Of a stretch of 64,000 bases of DNA, positions 4,196 to 61,352 are shown one piece after another (position 1 is the stretch's first letter; each line of letters starts with the position of its first letter). The DNA lies in NCBI GenBank assembly GCA_012441205.1, contig GCA_012441205.1_4705.1, one strand, 5' to 3'. This DNA is from a phage. The translations under genes and the position numbers were made by a program. Below the pieces are notes generated by a model. The model saw nothing but the letters and a program-made list of their open reading frames with translations. It was not told the origin of the DNA and ran no database searches.

Positions 4196-4669
4196 ATGCC
4201 AGTTTCATCCAAACCAAGAAAAAAATCCGTAGGAAACCCTAAAGCTCAGGAAACAACAGCAATTCGTTGGGACGAGTTACGTGAACCTATCGAAAACTGC
4301 GAATTGTTATTAGGTACCCTGGGTGCAGCTATTTACCAAGCGACGCAACCCTGTCGTTTACGATTAACCCAAAACAAACGTGATGAGTTCGTTGCATTAT
4401 CAACAAGCACGAATAAAGATCTGACCGAACTTCAAACCGAGTTGACGACGATCAAGAACTCCATCACGCCGATGTACGGTAAAGAAGTTGATGAACAAAG
4501 TATTCTGTTACAGTACAACTACGGGATGTCGTTAATGAACATCCTGGAACGCGCATCCGATATTCTGCGTCCTGACGTTGCACGCCTAAGCCAGCTGCGT
4601 GTCGAAGGGATGGAGAACCAGATCCGATTCGCTAACAGTGTTAAATCTCAAGGAGCCACCGAAGCATGA
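4196..4669 (+). CDS. hypothetical protein (157 aa)
   Basis: ORF with AGGAG SD; ATGA overlap with the next gene. Confidence 0.6.
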   Translation: MPVSSKPRKKSVGNPKAQETTAIRWDELREPIENCELLLGTLGAAIYQATQPCRLRLTQNKRDEFVALSTSTNKDLTELQTELTTIKNSITPMYGKEVDEQSILLQYNYGMSLMNILERASDILRPDVARLSQLRVEGMENQIRFANSVKSQGATEA

Positions 4670-6330
4670 GCGAACAAGAAAAAGAAGTCGTGACGAATCA
4701 GGAAGCCGTTGAGCGTTCAGAGTCGTCCGTTGAAACAACGATTCCGGCAAGTTCCGAGCCTGTTGGTTCCACACAGCAGGAAAGTAAAGACGAAGTAGTG
4801 GCTCCAGAAGCAACCCGTGAAGAAGAACCATCACATCCACCGCTGGTCGATTTCTCGAAGGCAACGATACGTTTCCAATGCGAAGACATTCGTCCTAAGA
4901 GTCCGAAGAAAACAAAACGTCAGCCGTTGGTGTTACCGCTGTATTCTCCACGTGTGCAGACAACGTATTACCGGGAATACATCAACGAAGCAATGGATAC
5001 CGTGCAAGCCATTGTCGCTCAACGCGGTAAACCGACAGACGAACAATTTGATAAATTCAGTAAAGCGGTGGTGCAATCGGTTGCTGATGGACAATATCAT
5101 CCGCGTGGCCCAGCTCACGATCGCGCCTTGGAACGTAAGGGCAGTCAGTGGACTAACGTACCCGTAGACTCATCGGGTGTTGGTCGCGTTATTCCTGGCA
5201 TTCCACAACCGAACCATATCCCTGATGATGTCGAAGCGCCGCTGACAGGAACCGATGCGATCTATTTTGCCATCCGTAATACGAAATCAGGTGCGCCTGC
5301 GGTAATGCCGTTATGGCATAGCGGTATTAAGCTGCAGTTTAATCCGCCGTCAAATGAACGTGTTGCAATTATGCACGAACGTATTGCACGCGATAAAATC
5401 CTGGGTGGACGTGATAGTACCGGTTTCCTGTTTTCAGCAACCTCGATTATCACCATGAAGCACGCTATCGAATTAGCATTAGAATGCTGCTACATGGCCA
5501 ACGTACCGAACCTGGATATCCAGCGTTTGAAAGACATTATTCCGGTTACCGATGTTCCAGCGTTATTGCTGAACGTGCTGGTAACCATGTACCCGTACGG
5601 ATATCCTTACGTACAGACCTGCTATCAGAATCCAGAAACCTGCGACTATCGTGTTGAAGATACCGTAAGCTTTGCAAAACTCTATCAAGTTGACAACAGC
5701 GCGATAACCAAACGTATGCGACAGATCATGACCGAAGGTCCGGTCATGACGGATGAACTTTTGCGTGAGTATGCAAACGAACTGGGTGAAACAAACTCCC
5801 GTACGCTGGATCTGTCCGACAACGGTTCTGTTATCATTGAACTTGAAGTACCGAAGATTTCACGTCAGATCGCCATGGGCGAACGCTGGTTAAGCGATAC
5901 CCTGGAAGATCTGCGTGATATTCTATCGCGTCCGTCAATGACCGAAGAAGAGCGTGATCGTGTTATTCGTGAACGTCAGTTCTATAGCTGGATGCGTCAG
6001 TATGATGCGTGGATCAAATCGATGCACGTGTCAGTAAACGGTACCATGCGTCGTGTAAGCGATGCAGATACGGCAACGGTATTAGCACAGCTGTCACGAG
6101 ACAGCGACCTTCGTGAACGTTATATTGACGGGTTGATGCAATTCATCGGTGATTCGACGATTGCGCTCGCAGCGATGCCTGCCTGGAAATGTCCGAAATG
6201 TAATGCCGATATTGCTGACAATCTGCGTGACCAGAAATACTACGATCTGATTGCTTTGGATGTACCCCAGCTTTTTTTTACCCTAAACTCCGTCCAATCT
6301 CTTCAGGAGGGGATGGACGCGGTATTCTAA
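4666..6330 (+). CDS. hypothetical protein with acidic N-terminal region (554 aa)
   Basis: long ORF; no motif recognised. Confidence 0.65.
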   Translation: MSEQEKEVVTNQEAVERSESSVETTIPASSEPVGSTQQESKDEVVAPEATREEEPSHPPLVDFSKATIRFQCEDIRPKSPKKTKRQPLVLPLYSPRVQTTYYREYINEAMDTVQAIVAQRGKPTDEQFDKFSKAVVQSVADGQYHPRGPAHDRALERKGSQWTNVPVDSSGVGRVIPGIPQPNHIPDDVEAPLTGTDAIYFAIRNTKSGAPAVMPLWHSGIKLQFNPPSNERVAIMHERIARDKILGGRDSTGFLFSATSIITMKHAIELALECCYMANVPNLDIQRLKDIIPVTDVPALLLNVLVTMYPYGYPYVQTCYQNPETCDYRVEDTVSFAKLYQVDNSAITKRMRQIMTEGPVMTDELLREYANELGETNSRTLDLSDNGSVIIELEVPKISRQIAMGERWLSDTLEDLRDILSRPSMTEEERDRVIRERQFYSWMRQYDAWIKSMHVSVNGTMRRVSDADTATVLAQLSRDSDLRERYIDGLMQFIGDSTIALAAMPAWKCPKCNADIADNLRDQKYYDLIALDVPQLFFTLNSVQSLQEGMDAVF

Positions 6331-8295: not shown

Positions 8296-10908
8296 TTAAG
8301 CGTCCGGCGTAAAATCAAAAGGAATGTCCGTACGAATGATATCATAACGTTTTCCGAGGAAATAAAACTCTTCGGGAACCTGACCGGGAATAATGCTATC
8401 ACCGATGAACTGCGGATACGCCCAGATGTACTGAGTGAGTCCTTCGAACATATCCAGGTTATTTGCGTGGTTACCCATGATACGTTTCCAGAGTTCGCGT
8501 TTATACGGCGTTTTAACATCGAAACCATAAAGCGGTGCAAGATCTTCACCAGGAACAAATCCCAGGTAATAGTGAATCTGACTAACCGGGAAACCAAGCG
8601 TATCTCGCGGAATGGTGATCGCTTGCTCAGCTTTGGTGACATGCGTTTCAATAATCCAGTCGTAGCACTCTGAATAGAACCGATCGAATTTCTCTGGATT
8701 ATACCACGCTTTGGGAAGATTCAGTTTCTCCGTGAACGCATTCGACATGATCGTCGGTAAGAACGGAAGAACACCGGTTTTGATCTGCGTGTATTTCGAT
8801 TTTACCCGGTTAGCCAAATTCCAGCAACTGTATCCTAACTGTTCGTTACAAAACTCAACGTAGAGATCGTAATCACCGCCGGATAATGGGTTGTTGATAT
8901 CACCAATGTCTGCAGCGTATTTGTTGGGATATCGGTTATTGAAAGCCAGTTTGGTTTGGTAATCGTAGATACACGGTTTGTTGTTCGCTGTATTGATCCA
9001 CCACCAGGGTTCACCCACCTGTACACAAATGTCCTGGACATGAGGGTAAATAATATCGGCAAACGCGGTTAACACATCCCCTAACCACGCCATCGCCTGT
9101 TGGTTACATGGAGACAGCAACCAGGACGGTGGTGTATATCCGGTTGCTGCGATGTTTCCTTCCCAATCCTGCTGCGCCCACTCGAACGGGCAGGCTGTAC
9201 TCATCAATTCGTAACTTAAACTGATGGTGACAGAGAAATGGTGTTTTGCAGCATATGCGGCGAAAGCTTCATGCCACGCGATACAGGGTGGATTTAATAC
9301 ATCCGTGGTGTTCACCAGTAACTTACCCGCACTTGGCGTCCAGACAGTATCGTAGAAATGCGACATTCCAACATAATGCACTAATTCATCTTGATACCCC
9401 GCATAAACCAGGTTCTCAAATACACGCTCTGGCGTGATGTTGTAATGGTCATCGTAAGCGGTTATCGCACGAAGTTCGTGTGGTGTACAGTGGTGACGAT
9501 TAACCGTCATTTCCTGATACACCCCATCGATAGGAAGAATCTCGAGGGTTAAACCGAGGTCGATTGGCGTTTCCAGATAGGTCGTTTCAGTCGCACCTTC
9601 CTTATAATGTCGAGAACTCATGCTGAACATCAACGATGCTACCGATTCGAGTTCGATAGGCTCGTCAGCATAGAACCCCGCCATTGCGTCATTGAAATCG
9701 ATCGTTACGATTGCGCTTCTACCGTCTTCAGAGACATCGGTGGCGTATCGGGTTAATGAGATATACTGACGGCTATCGTCTTTGTGTACGACGGTTAAAA
9801 CCGGCGGGTTTTCGGTATCTGCAAAGTTACGCTGATCGCCAGTAAACGTGATCTTCGCTTTAAAGATCAAACCGAATAACGACGTCATGGGATCATACGC
9901 AATACAACCGTGATCCAGCGTATCCGTTGTCCGCCATTCTATCCCGACCAACCCGTTAGCGGTATGGCATCGCATATACGCATTAAGGACCATGTCTTCA
10001 CTGACAACCGCGAAGTTCTCTGTTGACTGACCGTTGATAATCCAATACATCGGTTGCCAGAGGTTACGCGTACCTTTTGCGTAGCGGTAGGTTGGTGCGC
10101 CTTTAGGGTTGCCGTTATTGAGATGGAATACGGCAGTACCTTGATAATGGTCGTTCGTATTAATCGGAACACTGTAAGCGTCACCGAGGTCCGTACGTTC
10201 CACCTTCGTGACCGTTGCGTTTTCAAATAACCCACGCAACGCTGGTAAACCGATATCTTCAGGCGCGTTTTCTCGACGAATCGCATCCGCGATGCGATGG
10301 GCTAAGGCGGGGTAAATAGCTTCACCCTGTTGTAGGTTTGCAAGACCTACAAAGCGATCAGGGTCGATACCAGCAATCAATAACTCAACATCACCCTTCG
10401 TTCTATCGTCGTTAAGATATTTCAGTCCGGTAAGGTCAAGATGCTGAATAAGCGACAACAGGTTGTATTTACGGTTTTCAACAGTTAGTACAAGATCGCC
10501 TGCCCAAACCAAACTTCCCTCATCCGCTGTTACTTTAACGGATTGTCGGCCTGTGGTAGACGTTGTTGTCGTTTTATTTAATTGTCCTTGTAGGAAGTCG
10601 GTTGCGAGGTCAAAGGCAATACCGTAACGGTCAGCGACCGCTTGCATGATTTCACGTAACTGGGTATCTTCTTCAATGATAATCTTGACAGGTATTCCCA
10701 GGAACGCTTTAGCGAGGTCTCGTTTAACCAACGAGACGAATACGGATTTGTAGTATCGGCTTCCATCTTTCCCTTTAAAAAGAATGGAGGTTGTTTCGGG
10801 TGCCGATAGAACACGTGCAAATTCAACATCGTCGAAAGTAAGAGAAAGTCCGTTTTTCTCGTTGACCAATCTTAGTATTTCATTTTGCGCGGTTTCATGT
10901 AACTTCAT
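8296..10908 (-). CDS. receptor-binding protein (tail fibre/spike) with conserved N-terminal anchor domain and large unique C-terminal domain (870 aa)
   Basis: N-terminal 150 aa align with four other proteins (17249..19003, 16563..17090, 22652..23482, 59837..61291); GAGG SD. Confidence 0.7.
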   Translation of the reverse strand: MKLHETAQNEILRLVNEKNGLSLTFDDVEFARVLSAPETTSILFKGKDGSRYYKSVFVSLVKRDLAKAFLGIPVKIIIEEDTQLREIMQAVADRYGIAFDLATDFLQGQLNKTTTTSTTGRQSVKVTADEGSLVWAGDLVLTVENRKYNLLSLIQHLDLTGLKYLNDDRTKGDVELLIAGIDPDRFVGLANLQQGEAIYPALAHRIADAIRRENAPEDIGLPALRGLFENATVTKVERTDLGDAYSVPINTNDHYQGTAVFHLNNGNPKGAPTYRYAKGTRNLWQPMYWIINGQSTENFAVVSEDMVLNAYMRCHTANGLVGIEWRTTDTLDHGCIAYDPMTSLFGLIFKAKITFTGDQRNFADTENPPVLTVVHKDDSRQYISLTRYATDVSEDGRSAIVTIDFNDAMAGFYADEPIELESVASLMFSMSSRHYKEGATETTYLETPIDLGLTLEILPIDGVYQEMTVNRHHCTPHELRAITAYDDHYNITPERVFENLVYAGYQDELVHYVGMSHFYDTVWTPSAGKLLVNTTDVLNPPCIAWHEAFAAYAAKHHFSVTISLSYELMSTACPFEWAQQDWEGNIAATGYTPPSWLLSPCNQQAMAWLGDVLTAFADIIYPHVQDICVQVGEPWWWINTANNKPCIYDYQTKLAFNNRYPNKYAADIGDINNPLSGGDYDLYVEFCNEQLGYSCWNLANRVKSKYTQIKTGVLPFLPTIMSNAFTEKLNLPKAWYNPEKFDRFYSECYDWIIETHVTKAEQAITIPRDTLGFPVSQIHYYLGFVPGEDLAPLYGFDVKTPYKRELWKRIMGNHANNLDMFEGLTQYIWAYPQFIGDSIIPGQVPEEFYFLGKRYDIIRTDIPFDFTPDA

Positions 10909-10930: not shown

Positions 10931-11572
10931 TTAAATGTACTGCTTACCGCCCACGAAGGAAGTTAACCAGTTCCCGCTGACGAGTTGTGATACCCAGCCT
11001 GGAACGGCTCTACCATTCTGGCTCATGATGTTACCACACCAACCAGGGAATCCGGGACGGATGTAATAGAAAGTTAAATTGTAGAGATGGCAATTCCATA
11101 CCGCAACGTTATGTTTACCAGAAACCGCTTTAAAGACAAACGCGACAGGTAACGGAGACGATAACAATTCGGTCACAGGGACGGCTGACCAGTTCGCATT
11201 CGCGTTCCATGGTTGCCAGGTATGGCTGCGCGAGTCGCAATATACGTTACCGTTGTTACCGCGCCCACCCGCATTCCACCACAGCGACGGACTCATGTTC
11301 TTAAGTGAGGTAAATTGCTGCGGTGGAATATTAGGAATAATAACAGGGTTGGTACCTTGCCCATGTTTCTTTTCTTTTGCGTTCACATACCCGCTTATCG
11401 ATTCGAGGTATTTGACACCAGGATAATTATTCTGGACTTGTGTCGCAATATCACGAACATCGAACGTCCAGCAGATCATGGTGTTGTAGTAAGCATCGGT
11501 GTTGTCGTACCATGCGTTACCATCTTGTAAACGTGCGCCACTATTCGGTGTTTTATCTGTGTTTATAGCCAT
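10931..11572 (-). CDS. fibre-associated protein, paralog A (213 aa)
   Basis: C-terminal about 45 aa nearly identical to the protein at 11582..12349; lies between fibre genes. Confidence 0.6.
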   Translation of the reverse strand: MAINTDKTPNSGARLQDGNAWYDNTDAYYNTMICWTFDVRDIATQVQNNYPGVKYLESISGYVNAKEKKHGQGTNPVIIPNIPPQQFTSLKNMSPSLWWNAGGRGNNGNVYCDSRSHTWQPWNANANWSAVPVTELLSSPLPVAFVFKAVSGKHNVAVWNCHLYNLTFYYIRPGFPGWCGNIMSQNGRAVPGWVSQLVSGNWLTSFVGGKQYI

Positions 11573-11581
11573 AGTGTTGTC

Positions 11582-12349
11582 CTATACTGCGATGATTGAG
11601 ATATCGGATGCCGGATGTGTGTTGCCATCAGGTGGTACGTACAGAAACACCCACAGATAAAACAGTAGCTTCTCTAACTTCAATTTAATTGAAGTTAGAT
11701 ATTGTTTACCTCCAACAAACGACGTTAACCAATTACCTGAAACAAGTTGCGATGCCCAGCCAGGCACTGCCCTACCGTTCTGGCTCATCACGTTACCTGC
11801 CCATCCCGGAAAACCAGGTCGGAAAATATATACTTGAATATGTGTTAAAGCGTTATCATTACCACCGCCAACAGCAACGTTACGACTCCCAGATGACGGG
11901 AAATATTCTTTTAAGAACAGAGGATCGGTTGCTAATAAAGATGCGGGCCAAGGGTTCGCGGATGCATCAACATCGAATTCGGTCCATCGCCATTTACGTC
12001 CCGTGTCGAACCATGTCGATGTACCACCACCCCTCACGGCAAGATTGCGCGCATCACGGACATTATAAATTGATTCGATGTTACGCCATCCACCTTTTGC
12101 AGCGTTTGCTGCATAGCAAACCGCATTACCACCATTCTTCTTCTCGTAAACGGTTCGTTTGATATGAACACGGTCGATGAACGCTTCACCGTATTTGTTG
12201 ACGAGCGTTTGTGCGATATCACGAAGATCGTGCATGTGAAAAGCGATGTCTTCGTTATGGAACCATGTTGTCTGGTTCCAGACGGTACCGTTTGGTTCGG
12301 CACACATCGATCGGATATTGTTGCGTTGATTAATCGCGATAAAACCCAT
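11582..12349 (-). CDS. fibre-associated protein, paralog B (about 255 aa)
   Basis: homologous to 10931..11572 along its length; start set at ATG 12349 with GAGG SD (track ORF extends to 12436). Confidence 0.55.
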   Translation of the reverse strand: MGFIAINQRNNIRSMCAEPNGTVWNQTTWFHNEDIAFHMHDLRDIAQTLVNKYGEAFIDRVHIKRTVYEKKNGGNAVCYAANAAKGGWRNIESIYNVRDARNLAVRGGGTSTWFDTGRKWRWTEFDVDASANPWPASLLATDPLFLKEYFPSSGSRNVAVGGGNDNALTHIQVYIFRPGFPGWAGNVMSQNGRAVPGWASQLVSGNWLTSFVGGKQYLTSIKLKLEKLLFYLWVFLYVPPDGNTHPASDISIIAV

Positions 12350-12404
12350 TGTATACCTCGTTCCTATTCTCAAAAAGGAAATTTCATACGATGACGCCAT
12401 AGCA

Positions 12405-12434
12405 GCTCCTCCTTCCCTTACGGGTTGGAGGAGC
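12405..12434 (-). terminator. hairpin element, second copy of the 7279..7312 element
   Basis: reverse complement nearly identical to 7281..7312; no strong U-tract. Confidence 0.4.
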
Positions 12435-12442
12435 ATACTTAA

Positions 12443-12949
12443 TTACTCGCTGATAACCTCAACGGAATTGGGATCAGCGATCATCGCACGGTCAGTAGAA
12501 CAATTGAAGAAGACCATGCCGACACCATCGCCGTTCGAGTTCAGGGTTGAACTTACGTAAGACAGGGTTGGTTTATTCATGCGGTAGAAGCGTTCGCTGG
12601 TTGCGGTATTGAACCCCAGGTCAACGTAGTCTTTCACCGTGGTGTACAACTGTGTGGACTCGAAAACGGTTACCGGAGAGTCGACGGTAAATTGACTACC
12701 TTCGTCTACAACCAGAACTTTATCGTTCCAGATTTCAGTGGTTGAGAACTTCGGTTTCCAATGTTCGAATTCCTGGGTTGCACCCCAGCAAGAATACACA
12801 GCGAGATTGCTGTTCTTCTCAACAGGTTTCAACCCCACCAGTTGTGTCAGGTCTTTATCCAGGTTCGGTAAGCCTTCCAGCGTAGCACACCCACCCAGAG
12901 AAAGTACCATCAACATACCAAGAACGATCGCACAAAGTTTCTTCATCAT
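12443..12949 (-). CDS. lipoprotein (168 aa)
   Basis: signal peptide ending in lipobox LSLGGC; AAGGAAA SD; directly downstream of the long tail fibre gene. Confidence 0.65.
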   Translation of the reverse strand: MMKKLCAIVLGMLMVLSLGGCATLEGLPNLDKDLTQLVGLKPVEKNSNLAVYSCWGATQEFEHWKPKFSTTEIWNDKVLVVDEGSQFTVDSPVTVFESTQLYTTVKDYVDLGFNTATSERFYRMNKPTLSYVSSTLNSNGDGVGMVFFNCSTDRAMIADPNSVEVISE

Positions 12950-12997
12950 TAGATTTCCTTATGTGTTAACGGAAGTGACTTCCATAAGGATTGATGA

Positions 12998-15217
12998 TTA
13001 CTTTTTGAGCGCTTTAAGTTCTTCTTCCATCGCTTCCACTTTTGCCGTAAGCTTCTGTACTTGTTTGATTAATGGAACCACCAAACGTTCGTACATAACA
13101 CCTTCGGCGACGAGTCCGTTAGAAGAAACGATAGCGGGGTCATCTTCTTCGGTTGCATCACGCCAATGCACGTATTGTGGTGCGATCTCACCAACCTCTT
13201 CGGCAATCAACCCATACCAACCCCAATCCTTGTTGTCGGCTTCGCAGGTAGAACGATACCAGACAGGACGCATCTCCAATACTTTATCCGCTTGTTCATC
13301 CGTGATATTCTCGATATCTTTCTTATAGCGCCGCGACGACGTTGAACGAAACACATTGTTGATCCCAGCAGTAGGACTGATATACATATTAGCCCCGCTG
13401 GTTGTAGTGCTAATGTCCCATACCGCAAATCCGCCGTTACTCCCATTTCTCACGACCAACGTATTGGCAATAATATCCAGGTTATTGTTGTAACCGGTTA
13501 ACTGGTTTTCGGTGACAAAATCGGATAAGTTAACGGAGTAGTTCTTGCTGTTATAACAACGACGCCATCCTGGGCTGTTGGTGCTGCCATTATAGTTGTC
13601 GTAGCTATAAATGAACTCGGAGTTGGTTTTCGCACCACTGACGGAAGACGTGGTTGCGGTGGTAACACGGATAGTGTAGTTCGTCATCCCGAAGCTAACG
13701 ACCTCGATAACCGCACCAGCCAGAGGAATAATACCACATTTGGTTTCACTGTCTGGGATGTATGCGCTATCGGCAGCAGCGAAGGAGCAACGTGCGACCC
13801 AGGCACGGGTATTGAATGCACCTTGGTTCTGTAATAACGTAATAAACGATGAGGTCGTAATCGAGCTGTTATTATCACCTGTGATCAACCAGCCGGTTGG
13901 ACATGCGGTAGCACCAACGTTTTTCGCTGTTAGCGTGATGTTCTTCGATCCGTCGAAGGCTACGCCGCTGATGGTACGTGCAGTCTGTAGCTTCGTCGCC
14001 GTTGCCGCGTTCCCTGATGTGTTCTGGTTGCCTGTTGTATTCACACCCGGGATACTATCCTTAGATGTGTAGATCTGTGCCCATTCCGACCATTTCGCAT
14101 CGGTTGAATCACGACGTGAACGTAGGTAAGCTGGAGCGTGTGCACCCGAGGTACCTGACCATCCAATGAGGATTTCACCTTCGCCGACCGATGAAGCGCC
14201 TTTAAGATGAACAACGTTACCGTAGGCTGTAGGGTATCCGTTATTGTACGCTTCATACATCTGGATACCCGTATTGCTGCCCTGGGTCGCATTAGCTAAA
14301 GCGGTAACCCGTCCCTTGGAAGCGAGCACGTTAATGCTAAAGCTAATATCGGTTGTACCGTCAAAGGCGACCCCATTAATCCTCCGCGCTGTTTGGAGTT
14401 TCGTGGCAGTAGCCGCATTACCAGAGGTACTCTGATTGCCTGCTTTGTTCACACCTGGTAAATCAATGTTGGCGGTTCCATCAAAGGACACGCCCCCTAT
14501 GGTTCTCGCCGTCTGAAGTTTTGTTGCTGAACCAGCGTTTCCGGAAGTGCTTTGATTACCCGTCGCGTTGACACCTGGTAGGTTAATGCTAGCAGAACCA
14601 TCAAAAGAAACTCCACCGATCGTAATAGCTGTTCGCAACTTCGTGGCTGTCGCAGCGTTACCCGTCGTATTCTGATTACCAGCTGCATTGACGCCAGGTA
14701 ATGCGATATCAGCTGTGCCATCGAACGCGACACCTCCGATTTTACGGGCGGTTTGTAGCTTGGTTGCTGTAGCAGCATTACCGCTGGTATTTTGCGTACC
14801 GGCTTTATTTACACCAGGAAGATCGATGTTAGCAGAACCATCGAAGCTGACGCCACCTATCGTTCTTGCAGTAGCAAGTTTAGCGGCTGTAGCAGCGACG
14901 TTACCGACTTTTAACCATTCTCCCCATGGACCATCCACACCGTTCCATGATGCCGTTAAACTGCGCACGTATATGTTTCCTGTACGTACTGTGTAACGTT
15001 GTGTTCCACCGAATTGACCGGCTGGGAGCACTTCGATGTAACCTACAGCATTTGCTTCAGGGAAATTGTGGGCAGCATCGGCATTCGTTGATGTTTGTTT
15101 GGACCAAATACCCACAGACGCTTCAACCGGACCGTAGGTATCCAGATTTGCATCGGTGGGGAGCTGTCCTCGAAAACGTCGGAATAATGAAGCCGATAAC
15201 CCCAACGTTGTTTGCAT
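12998..15217 (-). CDS. long tail fibre, distal segment with tandem fibre repeats and C-terminal intramolecular-chaperone (S74-like) domain (739 aa from first ATG)
   Basis: about 40-aa repeats GNAATATKLQTARTIGGVSFDGSANIDLPGVN; C-terminal YKKDIENITDEQADKVLEMRPVWY...GLIAEEVGEIAPQYV; frame stays open upstream of the ATG to 15325. Confidence 0.8.
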   Translation of the reverse strand: MQTTLGLSASLFRRFRGQLPTDANLDTYGPVEASVGIWSKQTSTNADAAHNFPEANAVGYIEVLPAGQFGGTQRYTVRTGNIYVRSLTASWNGVDGPWGEWLKVGNVAATAAKLATARTIGGVSFDGSANIDLPGVNKAGTQNTSGNAATATKLQTARKIGGVAFDGTADIALPGVNAAGNQNTTGNAATATKLRTAITIGGVSFDGSASINLPGVNATGNQSTSGNAGSATKLQTARTIGGVSFDGTANIDLPGVNKAGNQSTSGNAATATKLQTARRINGVAFDGTTDISFSINVLASKGRVTALANATQGSNTGIQMYEAYNNGYPTAYGNVVHLKGASSVGEGEILIGWSGTSGAHAPAYLRSRRDSTDAKWSEWAQIYTSKDSIPGVNTTGNQNTSGNAATATKLQTARTISGVAFDGSKNITLTAKNVGATACPTGWLITGDNNSSITTSSFITLLQNQGAFNTRAWVARCSFAAADSAYIPDSETKCGIIPLAGAVIEVVSFGMTNYTIRVTTATTSSVSGAKTNSEFIYSYDNYNGSTNSPGWRRCYNSKNYSVNLSDFVTENQLTGYNNNLDIIANTLVVRNGSNGGFAVWDISTTTSGANMYISPTAGINNVFRSTSSRRYKKDIENITDEQADKVLEMRPVWYRSTCEADNKDWGWYGLIAEEVGEIAPQYVHWRDATEEDDPAIVSSNGLVAEGVMYERLVVPLIKQVQKLTAKVEAMEEELKALKK
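13936..14908 (-). repeat. in-frame coding repeats of the tail fibre (about 120-nt unit, about 5 tandem copies at 14344..14908 plus one distal copy at 13936..14047)
   Basis: repeats visible in both DNA and translation; copies are diverged. Confidence 0.6.
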
Positions 15218-15281
15218 CCCTTCAATGCTTGACTGCGATAGAAGCGCCCGAGCTGTCGACGTGATGGCCGCTAAAGCAACC

Positions 15282-16556
15282 TTATCCGTACCGGTAAAAA
15301 AACGGGAATTTGTTTGCTGATGTTGCTAAACCTGAAAGGGCGGTCAGTAATGCGTTAAGGGGTTGTTTCCCGGCTAGCGCGTTAGTCACAGTCGTTGCAA
15401 AGTTTGGATCATTACCTAACGCTTGAGCTAACTCGTTAAGCGTATTTAGCGCTTCTGGAGACGAGTCGATCAGCGACGCGATAGCACGCATCACAAATTC
15501 CGTGTTGGCGATCTGTTGACTGCTATCGTTCTCTGCAGCCGTAGGTGCTGCTGGGATACCGGTGAACACAGGGTTATTAAGATCCGCCTTAAGGGCGATG
15601 AGACGTCTAAGTGCTTCAACATCGACTTTCAGGTTTTCCCATCCGACGAGATAACCATCACCGGTTGTGTGATAACGGTTGTACCAAAAATCGCCATTAA
15701 CGCCAAAATAAAATATTCCCTTCTCTTCGTATTGTGGGCCAGAACTGTTCCGTGATGAGCTAATGTATTTTATTTCGATAAGGCCGTTGAATACCACTCC
15801 TGGGATAATTTTGTCGTTTCCAGACGATTGCGATACCTGGTAAGCCCCCGGTGTTGTGGCTCTAACCCAAGTCAAGAATTCTGATGTTCCAGCGTTACCG
15901 CTAAAACGCTTGACGTCGGTAAGTATCGCACCAAAACCGAACATACCGGGTAAAGCAACTCGCCCATCGGTACGGTCACGAATATCTGTTGCAACAACAG
16001 GCAACTGCTTACGAACATCATTAACTGCTTTAGGTGTCGCTGATTTTGTCTCATCGTCGCTATCGATATCACTGCTCAGGATGGTCAGTCCTCGAGTATC
16101 TGTGGTTGCATCAGGAAGAAACGCGTTATCTAACACCTTAAGCTGTATCGCATCCGTGTTATTAACAACAACATACACTTGACAGTTAAGAACGCTGGTT
16201 GCGCCTTCGGTAGGCACAGGCTTGTATCTTTCTGGTGCACTGCATACGGCGACCAGAACACCTTGATTGTCATACAGACCGATCTCACGTACCCAGAACC
16301 CACCTTGACTGGCAGGAATAATACCCTCAACAATAATCCTGGTTGTGTCGTCAACATCAATACGGATGTTGGAAACTTCCCCACGATAAACTTCGTGTAC
16401 AAGTGCTGTTTGGCTAGCATCGGGGGTTGGTGTAGAACCGTTGCCATCACCAACGGCAAAATGCGTAATTCTTAGTTTCTCACCGTCAGGAAGTAATGCT
16501 GCGGTGATACGTTCAGCGCCTTTATCGGTAATGACCGTTTTATAAGTTGTACTCAT
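15282..16556 (-). CDS. tail fibre, N-terminal segment (P2 gpH-like tail-collar fibre domain), ends prematurely at the T7 run (424 aa)
   Basis: MSTTYKTVITDKGAERITAAL...ITHFAVGDGNG...QTALVHEVYRG...GGFWVREIGLYD matches the P2 H / tail-collar fibre N-terminal domain. Confidence 0.85.
   Translation of the reverse strand: MSTTYKTVITDKGAERITAALLPDGEKLRITHFAVGDGNGSTPTPDASQTALVHEVYRGEVSNIRIDVDDTTRIIVEGIIPASQGGFWVREIGLYDNQGVLVAVCSAPERYKPVPTEGATSVLNCQVYVVVNNTDAIQLKVLDNAFLPDATTDTRGLTILSSDIDSDDETKSATPKAVNDVRKQLPVVATDIRDRTDGRVALPGMFGFGAILTDVKRFSGNAGTSEFLTWVRATTPGAYQVSQSSGNDKIIPGVVFNGLIEIKYISSSRNSSGPQYEEKGIFYFGVNGDFWYNRYHTTGDGYLVGWENLKVDVEALRRLIALKADLNNPVFTGIPAAPTAAENDSSQQIANTEFVMRAIASLIDSSPEALNTLNELAQALGNDPNFATTVTNALAGKQPLNALLTALSGLATSANKFPFFYRYG
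15296..15302 (-). other. T7 homopolymer (A7 on plus strand) at the frame change joining the two tail fibre segments
   Basis: removing one T fuses ...ANKFPFF to TGTDKVALAAITSTARALL... in frame. Confidence 0.55.
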
Positions 16557-16562
16557 GGCGTT

Positions 16563-17090
16563 TTATCCCGGGTAAATAGTGATGACATCACCGATGACAG
16601 TTGCCGCACCGACGCAAAGATACGCTGGTGATGTATCACGCTGGTTTGTCACGATAAGATCCAATTGCCCACGCCAAACCATGGAGGTATTCGCGATGGG
16701 AATCGAGATCTTCTTGGAAGTATCGTCACGAAAATTAATGGCGGTAGCAAGGGTAGCTGAATCAAAATCAACGTCGGGTTCAAAGTTGAAACCGTATTGA
16801 TCCGAAATAGCTTGAATAACCGCTCTTATGGTTGTTGTTTCAACCGACTCCAAAACGATTTTTATCGGTATTCCTAGAAATGCTTTCGCTATATCACGCC
16901 GTGTGTAAGTGATAAAACTTTCACCACACCACCTTGTTCCTTCATTTGCTGTGACGATCACTTTTGCCCTGTTAACACCAGAACTCCCATCCAGGGTTAA
17001 AGTGAGATCGGAGTTGCTGAATACACTACTGTTACGTTGGTTTATCAACGTAATAAGTTCGTCTTTCCATGGTGGGTAAAGTGAACGCAT
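16563..17090 (-). CDS. anchor-domain protein, short paralog (175 aa), immediately upstream of the tail fibre gene
   Basis: MRSLYPPWKDELITLINQRN...RRDIAKAFLGIP aligns with the conserved N-terminal domain; start set at ATG 17090 with GGAGGAGGG SD. Confidence 0.65.
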   Translation of the reverse strand: MRSLYPPWKDELITLINQRNSSVFSNSDLTLTLDGSSGVNRAKVIVTANEGTRWCGESFITYTRRDIAKAFLGIPIKIVLESVETTTIRAVIQAISDQYGFNFEPDVDFDSATLATAINFRDDTSKKISIPIANTSMVWRGQLDLIVTNQRDTSPAYLCVGAATVIGDVITIYPG

Positions 17091-17248: not shown

Positions 17249-19003
17249 TTATGCTGCTACATATCCAGGCCAACGTTCTCTTGGCCAGTTTGTTGCGCCC
17301 TGTCCAACGTTGTCCTTACCAGAAATTACATTACTTACGTCCCAACCACTAAGATCCTGGTTAAATGCGGTGTTGTTACGCATCATGAGGTCGATATTAC
17401 GTAATGATTGGGTATTCCAGCCGGAAATGTCTTGGTTGAATGCCGTGTTGTAAGCAAACATGTTAACAACGTTTTGTAATTTTGAAGTGTTCCAGCCGCT
17501 AATATCGCCATTGAACTGCATGCTCGAGAACATACTGCTAGCATCGATAAGACTATCTGTTTTCCAGTTAACCAGCTTGTTTTCATCAAGTGCGTTGCAA
17601 CTACTGAACATGTAACTCATGTTGTTAACTTTGGATACATCCCATTTATCTAACCCGTTACCAACGAACTCGTAACAAGCTTGGAACATCCAGCTCATGT
17701 CGGTAACCTGGCTCACATTCCATTTGCTAAAGTCGAGGTTGAGTTTTGCGCATCCGGAGAAAGTTTTATACATACTGGTGATACGACTAACATCCCATTC
17801 TTGAATGTTAGGATCATTAAGTATAGATAAGAATTGGAACAATCCGTCTAACGACGTCCATTTCTCTGGAATACGGTTTGGTACTGTACGGAGCGATGAA
17901 AGGTTATTGGTTGACGGAGAGCGGAACATACCGTTATCCCAATTTACGATTTCCGTAATGTTGTACCCACGGATCGTTTGGCGTCCATTACCATTATACA
18001 CAGACCCTGTTGCAGTTATTGTATATTCGTTTGTATCAGCATACGTATGTTCAGCCTGTGTAGGCCACTCACCTATTACATCCCTATTCCCATCACCCCA
18101 ATCGATGGAAATATTTGTCCAACCATCAAGATCTAGGGTAACGGTCCCGCCATTGGTCTTCAGGATGTATTTACCTGCATTGTCGGTATAATAACAAACG
18201 ATCATCGCACCGTACAGGTTACCAATTTGCCAATCATCCTTTTGAGTTACCGCGATATGTGCTGTGCCACGTTGTAGGAAAAGAACCGTACGGTTCTCGT
18301 CAGTCTGTAATGTGGTTAATGCTTGAGCCTTATCATCGTCGGTAATTTCACCAGCTTCCACTAAAGCACTTAACATTCTTTCGAAGTATTCGATGGGTAA
18401 TTGGTGTCCTACAGACATATCAACTGATGGAACAGCGAGATCATCCAATGCGGCGGCAGTTGCAAGCACTAATGATCCATTGGTGGTGTCTGTTTCTTGG
18501 AGGTAATGCAGTCCCGTAATCTGGTACGCTTGAATGATTGTAATCAGATCCAGCGTATCGTTAATGACCTGTACTTGTAAATGTCCAGACCAAACATAGC
18601 TGCTTTCAGCAATCGGTAATTCGACCGACTGAATACCCGATGTTTCAAAACTGATCTTCTTATTAAGATCGGCTTCCAGGAAATCAACCGCGAGGTCGAA
18701 ATTTATACCGTACTTTTCAGCGATGGAATCTATGATGTTCCTGAAAGCAACATCGGTACTTACGATGAATCGTAAAGGGATTCCTGTGAACGCATTAGCA
18801 ATATCTCGACGAACATACGTAAGTGATTGTTCGAAGAAATAGGGACTGTTATCTCCAGGTTTGATGGTTACCTGACACATTTCAGGATGTTCAGCTGGGA
18901 TGAACGATTCAAATTTAACATCGGATTCCTTCAACGAAAGCATGTTCTTCCGGTTTACCAGCGCCAGAAGATCGGCTTTCCATCCAGGATAAACAGTAGA
19001 CAT
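17249..19003 (-). CDS. receptor-binding protein: N-terminal anchor domain, PKD-like motif and C-terminal BspA/DUF285-type repeats (about 584 aa)
   Basis: anchor alignment; ISIDWGDGN...HTYADTNEYTI; repeats WDVSxVTxMxxMFxxCxxFNxDISxW; start set at ATG 19003. Confidence 0.7.
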   Translation of the reverse strand: MSTVYPGWKADLLALVNRKNMLSLKESDVKFESFIPAEHPEMCQVTIKPGDNSPYFFEQSLTYVRRDIANAFTGIPLRFIVSTDVAFRNIIDSIAEKYGINFDLAVDFLEADLNKKISFETSGIQSVELPIAESSYVWSGHLQVQVINDTLDLITIIQAYQITGLHYLQETDTTNGSLVLATAAALDDLAVPSVDMSVGHQLPIEYFERMLSALVEAGEITDDDKAQALTTLQTDENRTVLFLQRGTAHIAVTQKDDWQIGNLYGAMIVCYYTDNAGKYILKTNGGTVTLDLDGWTNISIDWGDGNRDVIGEWPTQAEHTYADTNEYTITATGSVYNGNGRQTIRGYNITEIVNWDNGMFRSPSTNNLSSLRTVPNRIPEKWTSLDGLFQFLSILNDPNIQEWDVSRITSMYKTFSGCAKLNLDFSKWNVSQVTDMSWMFQACYEFVGNGLDKWDVSKVNNMSYMFSSCNALDENKLVNWKTDSLIDASSMFSSMQFNGDISGWNTSKLQNVVNMFAYNTAFNQDISGWNTQSLRNIDLMMRNNTAFNQDLSGWDVSNVISGKDNVGQGATNWPRERWPGYVAA

Positions 19004-19041
19004 AAGCACTCCAATCATGGGGCGGTAACCGCCCCCATCAG

Positions 19042-23540: not shown

Positions 23541-23606
23541 CAAAAAAAAAAAAAAAAACGAAAAAATAGGAAAACGGTGTTCATCCTTTTTAGGGATGAA
23601 CACCGC
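23541..23606 (-). terminator. intrinsic terminator after CDS 23626..24201
   Basis: 11-bp stem GGTGTTCATCC/GGATGAACACC followed on minus strand by a T-rich tract including T17. Confidence 0.6.
23542..23558. repeat. A17 homopolymer (T17 on minus strand)
   Basis: read directly. Confidence 0.9.
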
Positions 23607-24947: not shown

Positions 24948-25122
24948 TTTTTATTCCTTAAACAAAAGATTGTCTTTTACGCGACATGATTACAAGTACA
25001 CAGGTTACTGAATTTCTGTAAAAGTTAATTTTCGTAAACTAAAAGAAAATGTATCCGTGTTTCCTGGTTCTTCCCCTCCACAGCCTCAGGAAGAGAAGAA
25101 CCGTTTGCTAAGTTGTTATGTA

Positions 25123-39404: not shown

Positions 39405-39687
39405 GTAACACCTCATCAAGATTATCACTTACGCCAGGCGGTACCACAATACCGGTACGAATCACAGCAGCAACTTCCTGCATGCCCTTACCCTTCAACG
39501 CATAGGTTTCATGTACCACATTACGTCGAGTCGTTAATCCAACAAATTTACATACAACCATGTTGTTTTCTGAAAGATAAGCGGTGTCGAGTTCACCGTG
39601 CAACAATTCTTTTTCTTTGGTATCAATACCTAATAACGCAATTTGATAAGCAGAAAGTTTCCAATAACGCATAATCGTCCTATTCAT
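39379..39687 (-). CDS. hypothetical protein (102 aa)
   Basis: ORF; start overlaps the dam stop. Confidence 0.45.
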   Translation of the reverse strand: MNRTIMRYWKLSAYQIALLGIDTKEKELLHGELDTAYLSENNMVVCKFVGLTTRRNVVHETYALKGKGMQEVAAVIRTGIVVPPGVSDNLDEVLHGTRKTAR

Positions 39688-40507
39688 AAACTATCAAATA
39701 TTCTGAAACCAAGTTTCTTGTTTCTACTTTTGCCGAAATCGTTCTTCGTACAGTTACAGGGTACAATTTTGTCGCCGAACTATAAATCTCTTCAGTCAAC
39801 GCACAAGCACTGTTGCTAATGATTGTAGGAATTCCCCGCGAGCGCAAGTTGTCAGCCTTTTCTGCAAGATAACGATGATCGTCTAATGTAAACCCCTCTT
39901 GAGTATAGCCCGTAAACGATGCGGTGGGGGAAATGGGAATATAAGGAGGGTCGCAATAAACGACGTCACCCGGAACCACCTTTTCAAGATGCTTCTGGAA
40001 CCCACCACTTACAATTTCTACCCCCCCCCCCTCGACGAAGGCAGCCTGAAGATGGTTCGCTGCCAGACGCAATTCCTGTTTCGGGAAATAGACGGTCTTA
40101 TACCGCCCATGCGCAACATTAAATAAACCATCACGATTATAACGACATAAGCCATTGAAACCGTAACGGTTTAAATACATGAAGCAAACTGCGCGTTCCC
40201 ACGGATCTTCAGCGCGGTTAAAACGTTCACGTATCTCGTAGTAGCTTCTGACGTCGGTAGGATCCGTTTGAAAAAGACGTTCCACTTCTTCGATGAAAGA
40301 TTCTGGACGCGCTAGCAACGCAGACCATACTGAGAGAATATCCTCATTCGCATCACCTATCGAATACGCTGGGTACTTAAGAGCAAGCGTAACAGCGCCG
40401 GAACCAACGAATGGTTCAACAAGACGCTTTCCTTTAGGTAACACTTTTTCAATCTCAGGGATAAGCCTGGTTTTGTTCCCAAGCCATTTAAGAAATGTTC
40501 TGCTCAT
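39680..40507 (-). CDS. dam: Dam-type DNA N6-adenine methyltransferase (275 aa)
   Basis: WLGNKTRL, SAM-binding EPFVGSGAV, catalytic DPPY. Confidence 0.85.
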   Translation of the reverse strand: MSRTFLKWLGNKTRLIPEIEKVLPKGKRLVEPFVGSGAVTLALKYPAYSIGDANEDILSVWSALLARPESFIEEVERLFQTDPTDVRSYYEIRERFNRAEDPWERAVCFMYLNRYGFNGLCRYNRDGLFNVAHGRYKTVYFPKQELRLAANHLQAAFVEGGGVEIVSGGFQKHLEKVVPGDVVYCDPPYIPISPTASFTGYTQEGFTLDDHRYLAEKADNLRSRGIPTIISNSACALTEEIYSSATKLYPVTVRRTISAKVETRNLVSEYLIVYE

Positions 40508-48299: not shown

Positions 48300-48372
48300 C
48301 GTTTTCACCTCGTAGTAAAAATAAATAGAGTTTTTGTCGAGACGCCCTAATTACTTACAACGTAGGTTATCC

Positions 48373-49257
48373 TCAATAACGACCGTAGCGTTCCTCGAGC
48401 CGTTTTGGTTTTCTCAGAAGGCTATCTTTAAGTGGTACGACGTCGATATCAACACTCTCTGAGTAATAGCCGTTAGAACTACCATACCAACGGATAACAA
48501 CACAACCCTTTGCAGTACGGATATGGTAAAATGTCCATTGTATACGTTCGCTGTAATAACCGTAGTTATCGGTTCTTTCCTCGGTTCTTTCTTCAGCACT
48601 GAGTATCTTTTCACCGATGATATCATTAATATCGCCGTCAATGTCTTCAAGATACACCTCTTCGCAGCAATCCTGCTGATGACAGAATTCGACAACGTTT
48701 CCATCACCACGATAGAAAAGAAGGGCGATACCGTTTCGTAATTGCTCGCTCGTTACATCAGACACACAATGCAAACTTTTATCGTCGGTAATCACCAAGA
48801 CGTTGTTGATTACATGTCCGGCAAGCGCTCCGATCTTATTTACCGTGATAATCGGACGAACCGGTTCAGATTGAACGATAGGAATACGGACACAACCAAT
48901 TAAAGCCATCCGTCCTTTCTTTGGTCTAACCGCAAGGTAAGGTGATTTTCTTGGGTGGTTATGCAGACGTATTTCTAATTCGTCAAATTTAATCCCGTAT
49001 ATACCTAAGAAACGATCGAACAACCGATGAAACTCATCTGTTGCTTCTTCCAACGTTATGGTGTCTACCGTGAGTTTATGTCCCCTGAACACCCGGGTTA
49101 TATCGATAACGTCCAGTGTTTTAAAATGTATTTCCGTAAGGGGGTGATTTGTATTTTCCAGGTAAGTAATTGTTCTTTGAACCACGATTTTAGGTTGCGC
49201 ACCTTTAAAACGTTTCAGGTATTTAACACGATAGCGTGTATGATCTGATGTTAACAT
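48373..49257 (-). CDS. hypothetical protein (about 294 aa)
   Basis: track ORF start lies inside an upstream terminator hairpin; ATG at 49257 has GGAGAGGAG SD. Confidence 0.55.
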   Translation of the reverse strand: MLTSDHTRYRVKYLKRFKGAQPKIVVQRTITYLENTNHPLTEIHFKTLDVIDITRVFRGHKLTVDTITLEEATDEFHRLFDRFLGIYGIKFDELEIRLHNHPRKSPYLAVRPKKGRMALIGCVRIPIVQSEPVRPIITVNKIGALAGHVINNVLVITDDKSLHCVSDVTSEQLRNGIALLFYRGDGNVVEFCHQQDCCEEVYLEDIDGDINDIIGEKILSAEERTEERTDNYGYYSERIQWTFYHIRTAKGCVVIRWYGSSNGYYSESVDIDVVPLKDSLLRKPKRLEERYGRY

Positions 49258-49319
49258 TTTAATCTCCTCTCCCGACTTCAGAGAATTCTTAAAATCCGTT
49301 AGTTTTGATAGATAGGGTA

Positions 49320-49353
49320 AGACGGCATAAAAGCCTCCCATTACGGGAGGCTT
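49320..49353 (-). terminator. intrinsic terminator after CDS 49365..49634
   Basis: AAGCCTCCC-GTAAT-GGGAGGCTT followed by TTTTAT on minus strand. Confidence 0.5.
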
Positions 49354-49364
49354 CATTAATCAGC

Positions 49365-49634
49365 TTATTTCACGTTAGAATCGAGAACCTCACGAACGGT
49401 TTTATCCGTACAACCACGAGCGATGTATGCATTAAGATCATCACGTAATTTACGCATCGTTGTTTTATCCGCATCAGAAACATCTGACTTGGTAAGACGG
49501 AATGCGATTGCATCGCGAATTTTATTCAACGTTGCTGGGTTATTACGCTGTTCTGCAAATACCGCTTTGATGAACTTATCGCTATCTTTCGAAGCAATAG
49601 CAGCATCAAGAATCTCAATATGCTTTTCAGACAT
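49365..49634 (-). CDS. hypothetical protein (89 aa)
   Basis: ORF. Confidence 0.5.
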   Translation of the reverse strand: MSEKHIEILDAAIASKDSDKFIKAVFAEQRNNPATLNKIRDAIAFRLTKSDVSDADKTTMRKLRDDLNAYIARGCTDKTVREVLDSNVK

Positions 49635-59836: not shown

Positions 59837-61291
59837 ATGAAACTCAAACAAAGCTGGAAAGACGAACTTCTCGCGTTAGTAAACAGCAAAAACAGTTTAC
59901 AACTGACATTAGACGATGTAAAATTTGAACTAACGGCACCGGTAAGCGAAGTGCCTGGAACGGTCGTTGTTACAATCAAACCGAACGATAATAGTCGCTA
60001 CTTTAACGAGCAGTCTCTGACCTACATCCGTCGAGACATCGCTAAAAACTTCACCGGGATCCCGTTACGGGTTATCGTTAAGCAAGATACCGCTGTAAGG
60101 GATATCATCAATACGATTGCTGAACGTTACGGATTGGTATTTGACACAGCCGTCGACTTCCTCGAATCCGAGCTGAATAAACAAATTACGTTCGCAGACA
60201 CCGGTATTAAAGACATTACGGTTCCGGTTGCAAACACGTCTTATGTTTGGGCGGGTAATCTTCAGTTCAATATTGCTAACGATACGTTAAGCTTGATTAC
60301 TATCATCAAGAAAACCGATCTTACGAATCTGGTTTATCTGGATGGTGTTGAAGCTGACACATCTGGTTCGTTACTATTAGCAACCGCAGCACTTGTTAAC
60401 GAACACGTAAATGAACCGATGGTTGAAAACGAAGATATCGTTAATGAATTTATTAACGTTCTTAATACTCTAGCCAAATATGGTGACATAACCGGCGATG
60501 AATTAGATGCCGCCTTACAAGCGTACGATGAAGCAGAAAACAGGAATAAAACCACGGTAATAACTCTTGGTGATATCCAGTGTGTTGCAACAGAAAAAGA
60601 CGATTGGGAAATTGGACGTTTACGCGGTCAGATGGTTCTCGCGCTCAAATCCGATAAATACCCGGAGCCCGATAACACGTTCAGGTTGTTTACGAATGGT
60701 GGTGACGTATCGCTAACGTTAAACACAATGAAAGATATAAGTATCGATTGGGGTGATGGGAATAAAGTAACGTTGGATGCTGAAGAAAGATACGCGCACC
60801 ACACATACGCCGACAATAACCAGTACCAAATCGAAATTGTGTCTCGTACGGACCCAGATGTGCTGCGACCAAATTATATTTCTGGGAGTGAGATAACCGA
60901 AGTAATTCACTGGGCTACTACTTCAACAATAGCTCTGAATTTTGTTGGATGCGATAATTTAGCGACTGTTCCAGATGAGATCCCAACTTCGTGGACAACG
61001 TTGGACAGCATGTTTGAAAGTTGTACGAATTTGAATGATCCGTCTATCTCTAACTGGAATACAAGTAACATCACATCAATGAATGGTATGTTCGGCGGAT
61101 GCACTAAATTTAACCAACCTTTAGCTGCCTGGGATGTCAGCTCAGTAACTGACATTGGTGGTATGTTTAACGGATGCAACAGTTTTAACCAAGATTTAAG
61201 TGGGTGGCGATTACCGTCAGGAGTAACCCACGACAATTACGATAGTGGTGCTTTCTCGTGGCAGACGGAACATAAACCGACGTTCCAGTAA
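59837..61291 (+). CDS. receptor-binding protein: N-terminal anchor domain, PKD-like motif and C-terminal BspA/DUF285-type repeats (484 aa)
   Basis: anchor domain aligns with 17249..19003 and others; ISIDWGDGNKVT...HHTYADNNQYQI; repeats NWNTSNITSMNGMFGGCTKFNQPLAAWDVSSVTDIGGMF. Confidence 0.7.
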   Translation: MKLKQSWKDELLALVNSKNSLQLTLDDVKFELTAPVSEVPGTVVVTIKPNDNSRYFNEQSLTYIRRDIAKNFTGIPLRVIVKQDTAVRDIINTIAERYGLVFDTAVDFLESELNKQITFADTGIKDITVPVANTSYVWAGNLQFNIANDTLSLITIIKKTDLTNLVYLDGVEADTSGSLLLATAALVNEHVNEPMVENEDIVNEFINVLNTLAKYGDITGDELDAALQAYDEAENRNKTTVITLGDIQCVATEKDDWEIGRLRGQMVLALKSDKYPEPDNTFRLFTNGGDVSLTLNTMKDISIDWGDGNKVTLDAEERYAHHTYADNNQYQIEIVSRTDPDVLRPNYISGSEITEVIHWATTSTIALNFVGCDNLATVPDEIPTSWTTLDSMFESCTNLNDPSISNWNTSNITSMNGMFGGCTKFNQPLAAWDVSSVTDIGGMFNGCNSFNQDLSGWRLPSGVTHDNYDSGAFSWQTEHKPTFQ

Positions 61292-61352
61292 AAAAAAAAA
61301 TAGTTAGCATATCTTCCTCCCTACCCATAACGGGCGGGGAGGAAGGTTTTAT
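61292..61352. terminator. bidirectional terminator between convergent genes
   Basis: A-run after the plus-gene stop, 9-bp stem CTTCCTCCC/GGGAGGAAG, then GTTTTA. Confidence 0.5.

Follow-up and report, generated by a model that had tools for sequence, protein, structure and literature searches.

The long tail fibre locus

Two successive open reading frames (ORFs) on the minus strand of the window, the 64,000-nucleotide stretch of phage DNA analysed here, together make up the length of a long tail fibre gene. Read on the minus strand, the sequence at their boundary is GCA AAC AAA TTC CCG TTT TTT TAC CGG TAC GGA TAA. The features of the locus, all on the minus strand, are:

12998–16556: the whole long tail fibre gene, encoding 1185 aa with one T deleted; orthologue of Goslar_00090.
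15282–16556: proximal ORF, 424 aa, comprising the tail-collar N-terminal domain and proximal shaft, with the out-of-frame end ...ANKFPFF-YRYG-stop.
16134–16556: tail-collar N-terminal domain (Phage_tail_fib, PF12571), residues 1–141, Pfam E value 8.7e-42.
15296–15302: T7 run of the coding strand, which the plus strand shows as A7; the intact alleles L002 and L019 have T6, one base fewer.
15282–15284: premature TAA, four codons (Y R Y G) past the T7 run.
15326–15328: TAG, the upstream limit of the distal reading frame.
12998–15325: distal open frame, with shaft repeats, receptor-binding region and S74 chaperone.
12998–15217: the distal ORF as delimited by its ATG, 739 aa.
14357–14887: five consecutive 40-aa fibre repeats with core motif ATKLQTARTIGGVSFDG, found by protein-level search.
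13949–13999: a sixth, isolated copy of the 40-aa repeat.
13169–13339: Peptidase_S74 intramolecular chaperone (PF13884), residues 1073–1129, beginning SSRRYKKDIENI, from Pfam.

As a sequence-only reading of the window had claimed, the proximal ORF stops four codons past the T7 run, which the minus-strand sequence and the TAA at 15282–15284 bear out, and the frame of the distal ORF is open upstream to 15325, where the TAG at 15326–15328 closes it. Owing to these two stop codons, the frame change joining both ORFs is confined to positions 15285–15325. Removal of one T fuses the ORFs at the junction that the same reading had predicted (...SANKFPFFTGTDKVALAAITSTARALLSQSSIEG...), giving a protein of 1185 aa, for which about 1190 aa had been estimated. 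As read, the window encodes no single polypeptide extending from the collar to the receptor-binding tip; with one T removed, it does.

The order of collar domain, repeats and chaperone expected of such a fibre was recovered by Pfam in the repaired protein. At the N terminus, PF12571 scores 143.1 bits against a gathering cut-off of 23, in agreement with the earlier proposal of a P2 gpH-like N-terminal domain; a Phage_fiber_2 (PF03406) repeat lies between the collar and S74 domains, and PF13884 occupies the extreme C terminus (34.1 bits, cut-off 22). Single PHROG tail fibre profiles, phrog_454 among them, match both halves, and in colinear order. The repeats are visible in the protein only, as Tandem Repeats Finder detected no DNA-level tandem repeat array in the fibre gene. 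A C-terminal chaperone of the S74 type is needed for trimer folding, which proceeds from the C terminus, and SSRRYKKDIENI at the start of the domain resembles the cleavage-site pattern of endosialidase-type chaperones and may contain an autoproteolytic Ser...Lys dyad.

Over 85% of their length, positions 1–25000 of the window align with Escherichia phage vB_EcoM_Goslar, the identity being 94.7%, and about 85 Goslar genes are colinear along the whole window. By this nucleotide identity and synteny, the window is assigned to a Goslar-like (Goslarvirus) jumbo phage, Goslarvirus being described in the literature as a genus of the nucleus-forming Chimalliviridae. The phage encodes its own RNA polymerase subunit genes.

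The orthologue in the equivalent genomic position, the Goslar tail fibre repeat protein Goslar_00090 (gp90), is a single ORF of 1324 aa; its N-terminal 420 aa are about 85–90% identical to those of the window protein and its 40-aa repeats are of the same type. Goslar gp90 reads through ...ANKLPYFTG... uninterrupted, with TAT TTT (T4) at the site where the window has T7, and its alignment with the repaired window protein stays colinear through the junction (Goslar ANKLPYFTGRNQ, window ANKFPFFTGTDK). The two proteins differ in their distal parts: gp90 has more repeats and a glycine-rich C terminus, followed by a separate Caudo_TAP assembly gene, whereas the window protein has an S74 tip and no TAP gene is present.

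Intact and broken fibre alleles of Goslar-like phages

Relatives were gathered by protein search with the N-terminal 552 aa of the repaired protein, supplemented by the DNA of further metagenome loci. Among the 22 distinct Goslar-like fibre alleles, 18 are single intact ORFs, of 836–1324 aa, and four are broken. At the site of the break, the sequences read as follows:

Goslar and L022: CCT TAT TTT ACT (T4).
L003 and L004: CCA TTT TTC ACC (T5).
L002 and L019: CCG TTT TTT ACC (T6), with flanks identical to those of the window and an uninterrupted ORF.
Window: CCG TTT TTT T ACC (T7).

T4 is also found at the site in L023, and L018 and L020 resemble L003 in having T5 or an interrupted run, reached through ordinary codon changes. 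Comparison with related phage genomes, which the sequence-only reading had suggested, upholds its central claim that one fibre gene is split inside a T homopolymer: the T6 alleles with the same flanks, L002 and L019, are intact homologues with an uninterrupted ORF, and the others are in frame with T5 or T4.

Relative to L002, the extra T is the sole indel within the fibre gene. The repaired protein is 95.7% identical to the intact 1265-aa fibre of L019 and aligns with it free of gaps over residues 1–879, the S74 tip being common to both, and a further intact protein (P0002) is identical to it across the junction. The break cuts through a motif that 64 of the 120 retrieved homologues share, with the pattern (K/T)(L/F)P(Y/F)F(T/S)(G/A/D). 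Because the repaired protein follows Goslar gp90 colinearly through the junction, is identical to P0002 there and has no gaps against L019 over residues 1–879, the T7 split and its one-base repair are, as judged from these alignments, a genuine feature of the sequence and no chance coincidence of frames.

The same split at this site occurs in no other record among the relatives found by protein search. One candidate, P0009 (425 aa), was rejected as an instance of the same frameshift, its lesion being a different one, an out-of-frame deletion. Exact-protein look-ups with both ORFs and two neighbouring proteins gave no match in the collections searched, and a second assembly of the window's strain was therefore not found. 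Exact scans for the junction pattern in viral, genome and metagenome collections were likewise empty; these scans missed L019, which bears the pattern, in its own collection, and their outcome is therefore no evidence of absence. Goslar-like DNA was absent from the complete E. coli genomes and the plasmid collection searched.

Three other Goslar-like lineages have independently broken fibre genes, all known from automated metagenome or run assemblies. The first is represented by contigs of five sequencing runs (L008–L012) that are 100% identical over 2752 nt and constitute one strain; here G5, where Goslar has G4, splits the fibre into ORFs of 260 aa and 663 aa. In L013, a T5 run within the glycine-rich distal domain stands where L001, L002 and L008 have T6, and in L007 about 420 nt are deleted out of frame immediately behind FTGTDK; each of these two alleles was seen once, in a single automated assembly. 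No frameshifts were detected in other genes on the broken-allele contigs and the longer intact loci examined. The Goslar-like copies of a neighbouring 1198-aa tail protein fall into one 90% cluster of 442 members, which gives no usable truncation rate for comparison.

Origin and consequence of the extra T

What splits the gene is an ordinary homopolymer frameshift that is not programmed and is possibly a sequencing artefact, and as such a new instance of a well-known lesion; in annotation, both ORFs are to be treated as one frameshifted tail fibre gene, neither as two genes nor as a recoding site. We consider it probable that the insertion of one base (T6 to T7) is real and recent and arose by replication slippage. 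A Tyr-to-Phe codon change in a sub-lineage, TAT TTT to TTT TTT, would have created a T6 warm spot, and slippage of the DNA polymerase on this run during replication would recently have added one T.

Translation would then stop four codons on, after ...FPFF-YRYG, and the main product would be the 424-aa proximal fragment, which keeps the baseplate-docking collar but would be without the shaft repeats, receptor-binding tip and S74 chaperone. The distal 739 codons, having no start signals of their own, would probably be untranslated to any useful extent. The particle would consequently carry no long fibre, save for full-length protein arising from slippage on U7; RNA polymerase or ribosome slippage may incidentally supply a few per cent of it. 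Provided that the extra T is present in the DNA, the allele is most likely a null or strongly hypomorphic fibre allele, and the phage would probably show altered adsorption or host range, which is relevant to the use and typing of Goslar-like phages.

Among neighbouring candidate host-recognition proteins are three that have an N-terminal DUF7941 in common, of 175 aa, 589 aa (with DUF285 repeats) and 870 aa (with a TIM barrel). Given these candidates, loss of the one fibre may be tolerated.

A close parallel is the stf gene of lambda PaPa, in which a single-base frameshift likewise gives two ORFs of which the distal one is intact, and whose wild relatives (Ur-lambda) are intact; at the window locus, too, a one-base indel splits a gene that is whole in close relatives. 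According to the passage of PMC12617516 that cites Hendrix and Duda 1992, the stf frameshift blocks side-fibre synthesis in lambda PaPa, plating is unaffected and the phage is fully viable, Ur-lambda being fibred. The parallel has its bounds: lambda PaPa is a temperate siphovirus whose lesion, in an accessory fibre, comes from laboratory stocks, whereas the window belongs to a nucleus-forming jumbo myovirus, with a putative extra base in a fibre that may be dispensable.

A sequencing or assembly error, in which a homopolymer was miscounted in the consensus of a genome truly carrying T6 and an intact 1185-aa fibre gene, is possible but on balance unlikely, and we favour a real mutation. No consensus error is commoner than the gain of one base in a homopolymer, the flanks match those of the T6 alleles L002 and L019 exactly, and the empty exact-protein look-ups leave T7 with no second assembly of the strain to confirm it. 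The distal ORF is fully preserved, with a dN/dS of 0.08 (0.09–0.17 for the proximal part), as would equally be expected of an artefact; owing to this absence of decay, the change is either recent or artefactual.

Against an error stands the accuracy of the assembly elsewhere. The fibre gene is the only one to change frame among the about 85 mapped Goslar genes, the others being intact, and of the 104 coding homopolymers of at least 5 nt in mapped genes one breaks the frame, namely the fibre T7. Another run of seven and two longer, far more error-prone runs stay in frame:

4219–4225: coding A7, in frame.
6272–6279: coding T8, in frame.
39680–40507: intact 275-aa ORF of a D12-class methyltransferase with a G11 run inside it, in frame.

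That A7, T8 and G11 are all in frame speaks for reliable homopolymer counts in this assembly; a platform prone to such errors should have miscounted these runs first. The chance of a random error falling in this 3.56-kb gene of the 64-kb window is about 5.6%, and a real disruption of the same gene in a related strain was assembled five times.

Selection, switching, recoding or two genes

The recurrence of broken alleles could have a cause beyond chance. Goslar-like phages, of which about 237 Goslarvirus assemblies have been published (PMC12768965), have been reported nearly exclusively from assemblies of bacterial isolates, in which they form persistent or carrier-state infections (PMC12768965; bioRxiv 10.1101/2024.12.31.630880). 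Broken alleles in 4 of 22 hint at relaxed or fluctuating selection on the adsorption apparatus in phages that persist in culture. That fibre loss by small frameshifts is both recurrent and selected in these jumbo phages, weaker adsorption favouring coexistence with the host culture, is a speculative proposal that we hold to be rather doubtful; short homopolymers in the gene would then be the places where such mutations enter, and slippage on them would make expression leaky and reversible.

More doubtful still is an adaptive ON/OFF contingency locus, in which slipped-strand changes of tract length would keep both fibred and fibreless particles in being, for example to moderate adsorption in carrier-state infections. 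The same tract is ON as T6 in L002 and L019 and OFF as T7 in the window, other short homopolymers of the fibre gene are OFF in other lineages, and the recovery of these phages almost only from bacterial isolates would suit such a switch. Known contingency tracts are, however, typically 8 nt or longer and conserved, whereas the run here has 7 nt, that of L002 and L019 has 6 nt, and elsewhere it is shorter or interrupted (T4 in Goslar, L022 and L023; T5 or interrupted in L003, L018 and L020). Moreover, 18 of the 22 alleles are ON, and no two lineages are disrupted at the same site, a pattern expected of chance hits at mutational warm spots and not of a dedicated switch.

Hypermutable polyG tracts in receptor-binding genes of Campylobacter phages are a known strategy of this kind, a change in homopolymer length switching the receptor-binding protein on or off (Sorensen et al. 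2021, Cell Rep 35:109214, as cited in a passage of PMC10877375). The run of 6–7 T considered here is absent from most relatives. In the Campylobacter phages, by contrast, the tracts reportedly comprise about 9 G or more, are conserved and vary in length within single lysates. Slipped-strand phase variation, one of the options raised by the sequence-only reading, is thus weakly supported at best, the tract being short and not conserved.

Programmed recoding, by which +1 (or −2) ribosomal frameshifting or transcriptional slippage on U7 would set the ratio of short to long product, we regard as having next to no likelihood. On UUU UUU U, tRNA-Phe could re-pair in the +1 frame, and in a reporter for E. 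coli RNA polymerase T7 is the shortest T run with detectable rescue, of about 5%, no slippage being detected below seven T (PMC6260861). In Citrobacter rodentium, slippage does rescue a split gene, tssM1, in which a homopolymer is likewise closely followed by a premature stop and the domain beyond it is in the +1 frame; its A11 run gives about 20–25% frameshifting, both products are required and the arrangement recurs in Yersinia (PMC4256274). In the window, by contrast, the run has 7 nt, the site is not conserved and rescue of no more than a few per cent would be expected (PMC6260861).

No relative has the T7 run; at this site, each of the 18 intact alleles keeps the frame, with T4, T5 or T6. 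Neither a conserved site nor a stimulator (an A-site stop or rare codon, an upstream Shine–Dalgarno (SD)-like element, downstream structure) was found: the shift site is followed by TAC, a common codon, the stop comes four codons later, and the 123 nt starting at the run show no significant RNA structure (minimum free energy z-score −0.30, with 74 of 200 shuffles folding as well). Programmed +1 frameshifting, which the earlier reading had also listed, was rejected on these grounds, and so was designed transcriptional slippage, the run being short and not conserved in comparison with the conserved runs of 9–11 nt in known slippage-dependent genes.

A genuine two-gene fibre, with separate proximal and distal half-fibres assembling non-covalently as do T4 gp34 to gp37, is equally far-fetched: both ORFs are long and intact and the ATG at 15217 lies 64 nt past the stop, but the break falls inside a conserved motif, the nearest alleles differ by one base only, and no connector proteins are present. 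The ATG at 15217 encodes a methionine that is internal (EGMQTTLGL; E/Q/S-G/S-M-QTTLGL) in every intact relative, and the sole SD-like element, GAAGGG, abuts it with zero spacing and has a duplex energy of −4.3 kcal/mol, whereas the median over 72 mapped gene starts is −6.25 kcal/mol. With its start at an internal methionine and so poorly placed a ribosome-binding site, the distal ORF is therefore no evolved second gene, and a bona fide two-gene fibre was rejected.

Exchange of the distal fibre module, and neighbouring genes

The distal fibre module of the window (10931-16556) is swapped relative to that of Escherichia phage vB_EcoM_Goslar (97104-102861). At its end is a Peptidase_S74 chaperone domain without a Caudo_TAP gene, an arrangement shared with the related fibre protein P0001 and with three related loci (L018, L019 and L020). 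In Goslar and L002, a related locus with an intact fibre allele, the fibre instead has a glycine-rich domain at its end, and the next gene is a separate one for tail fibre assembly. The swap is a typical host-range cassette exchange.

Genes and open reading frames neighbouring the fibre gene of the window

8296-10908: DUF7941 N-terminal domain with a C-terminal NCTSP TIM barrel (870 aa)
10931-11572, minus strand: 213-aa open reading frame, no family match
11582-12436, minus strand: 284-aa open reading frame, no family match
16566-17090: DUF7941 N-terminal domain with no further C-terminal part (175 aa)
17249-19018: DUF7941 N-terminal domain with C-terminal DUF285 repeats (589 aa)

The adjacent 213-aa and 284-aa frames have in common a near-identical C-terminal stretch of about 40 residues (RPGFPGW.GN.MSQNGRAVPGW.SQLVSGNWLTSFVGGKQY) and are therefore paralogues; the 284-aa frame has no Goslar counterpart and is found in the related locus L003. 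Also absent from Goslar is the 589-aa gene, and a further DUF7941 N-terminal domain is present in a 276-aa gene of L002. As one N-terminal domain is fused to differing C-terminal parts in several neighbouring tail-module genes, it is suggested that a number of host-recognition proteins share DUF7941 as their attachment domain.

Tail-module lesions in other Goslar-like strains

Lesions in the fibre gene and tail module occur in other Goslar-like strains. One such strain, represented in five runs (L008, Logan SRR29582122; L009, Logan SRR29581958; and L010-L012), has a fibre gene frameshifted by expansion of a G4 run to G5. Missing from it, as seen in the whole contigs of L008 and L009, is about 5.3 kb of L002; in that segment lie two tail genes, of 276 aa and 1198 aa, together with the part of the DUF7941-DUF285 gene that encodes its N-terminal half. 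Owing to the frameshift and the missing segment together, the tail module of this strain carries several lesions, and the strain may be defective. Independent fibre-gene lesions are found in two different assemblies: in L013 (4825-4870), T5 replaces T6 in the glycine-rich distal domain, and L007 (2690-2720) lacks about 420 nt, a deletion that is out of frame and joins ...FTGTDK to the first fibre repeat.

An exact-pattern scan of metagenome_contigs for TTTTTTACCGGTACGGATAAGGTTGC gave zero matches, although L019, from the same collection, holds the exact string; negative pattern scans are therefore not evidence of absence.

Methyltransferase insert, missing Goslar genes and A runs

Homopolymer runs and the methyltransferase gene of the window

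23542-23558: A17 run, intergenic, between the Goslar_00093 and Goslar_00094 homologues
39680-40507, minus strand: D12-class N6-adenine DNA methyltransferase, intact, 275 aa (PF02086, E 2.3e-60)
40021-40031, minus strand: G11 run in the methyltransferase gene (coding strand), in frame and translated as ...VEGGGVEIV...
61290-61300: A11 run, a few bases 3' of the stop of the Goslar_00161 homologue

Inserted between the Goslar_00124 and Goslar_00125 homologues is a segment of about 850 bp, absent from Goslar, that carries the methyltransferase gene. The G11 run, as so long a homopolymer within a methyltransferase, is a candidate phase-variable switch.

When the Goslar genes were mapped onto the window, 00096, 00120 and 00143 to 00145 had no counterpart; at the corresponding sites (about 24950-25120, 36345 and 48300-49370), compared with Goslar, small segments are replaced or deleted.

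The A17 tract has 5 nt fewer in L002 and is reduced further in L003, and its length thus differs among strains. Adjoining the A11 run is a GC-rich inverted repeat (GGAAGGTTT... / ...CCTCCC), which together with the run forms a terminator-like context after the Goslar_00161 homologue.
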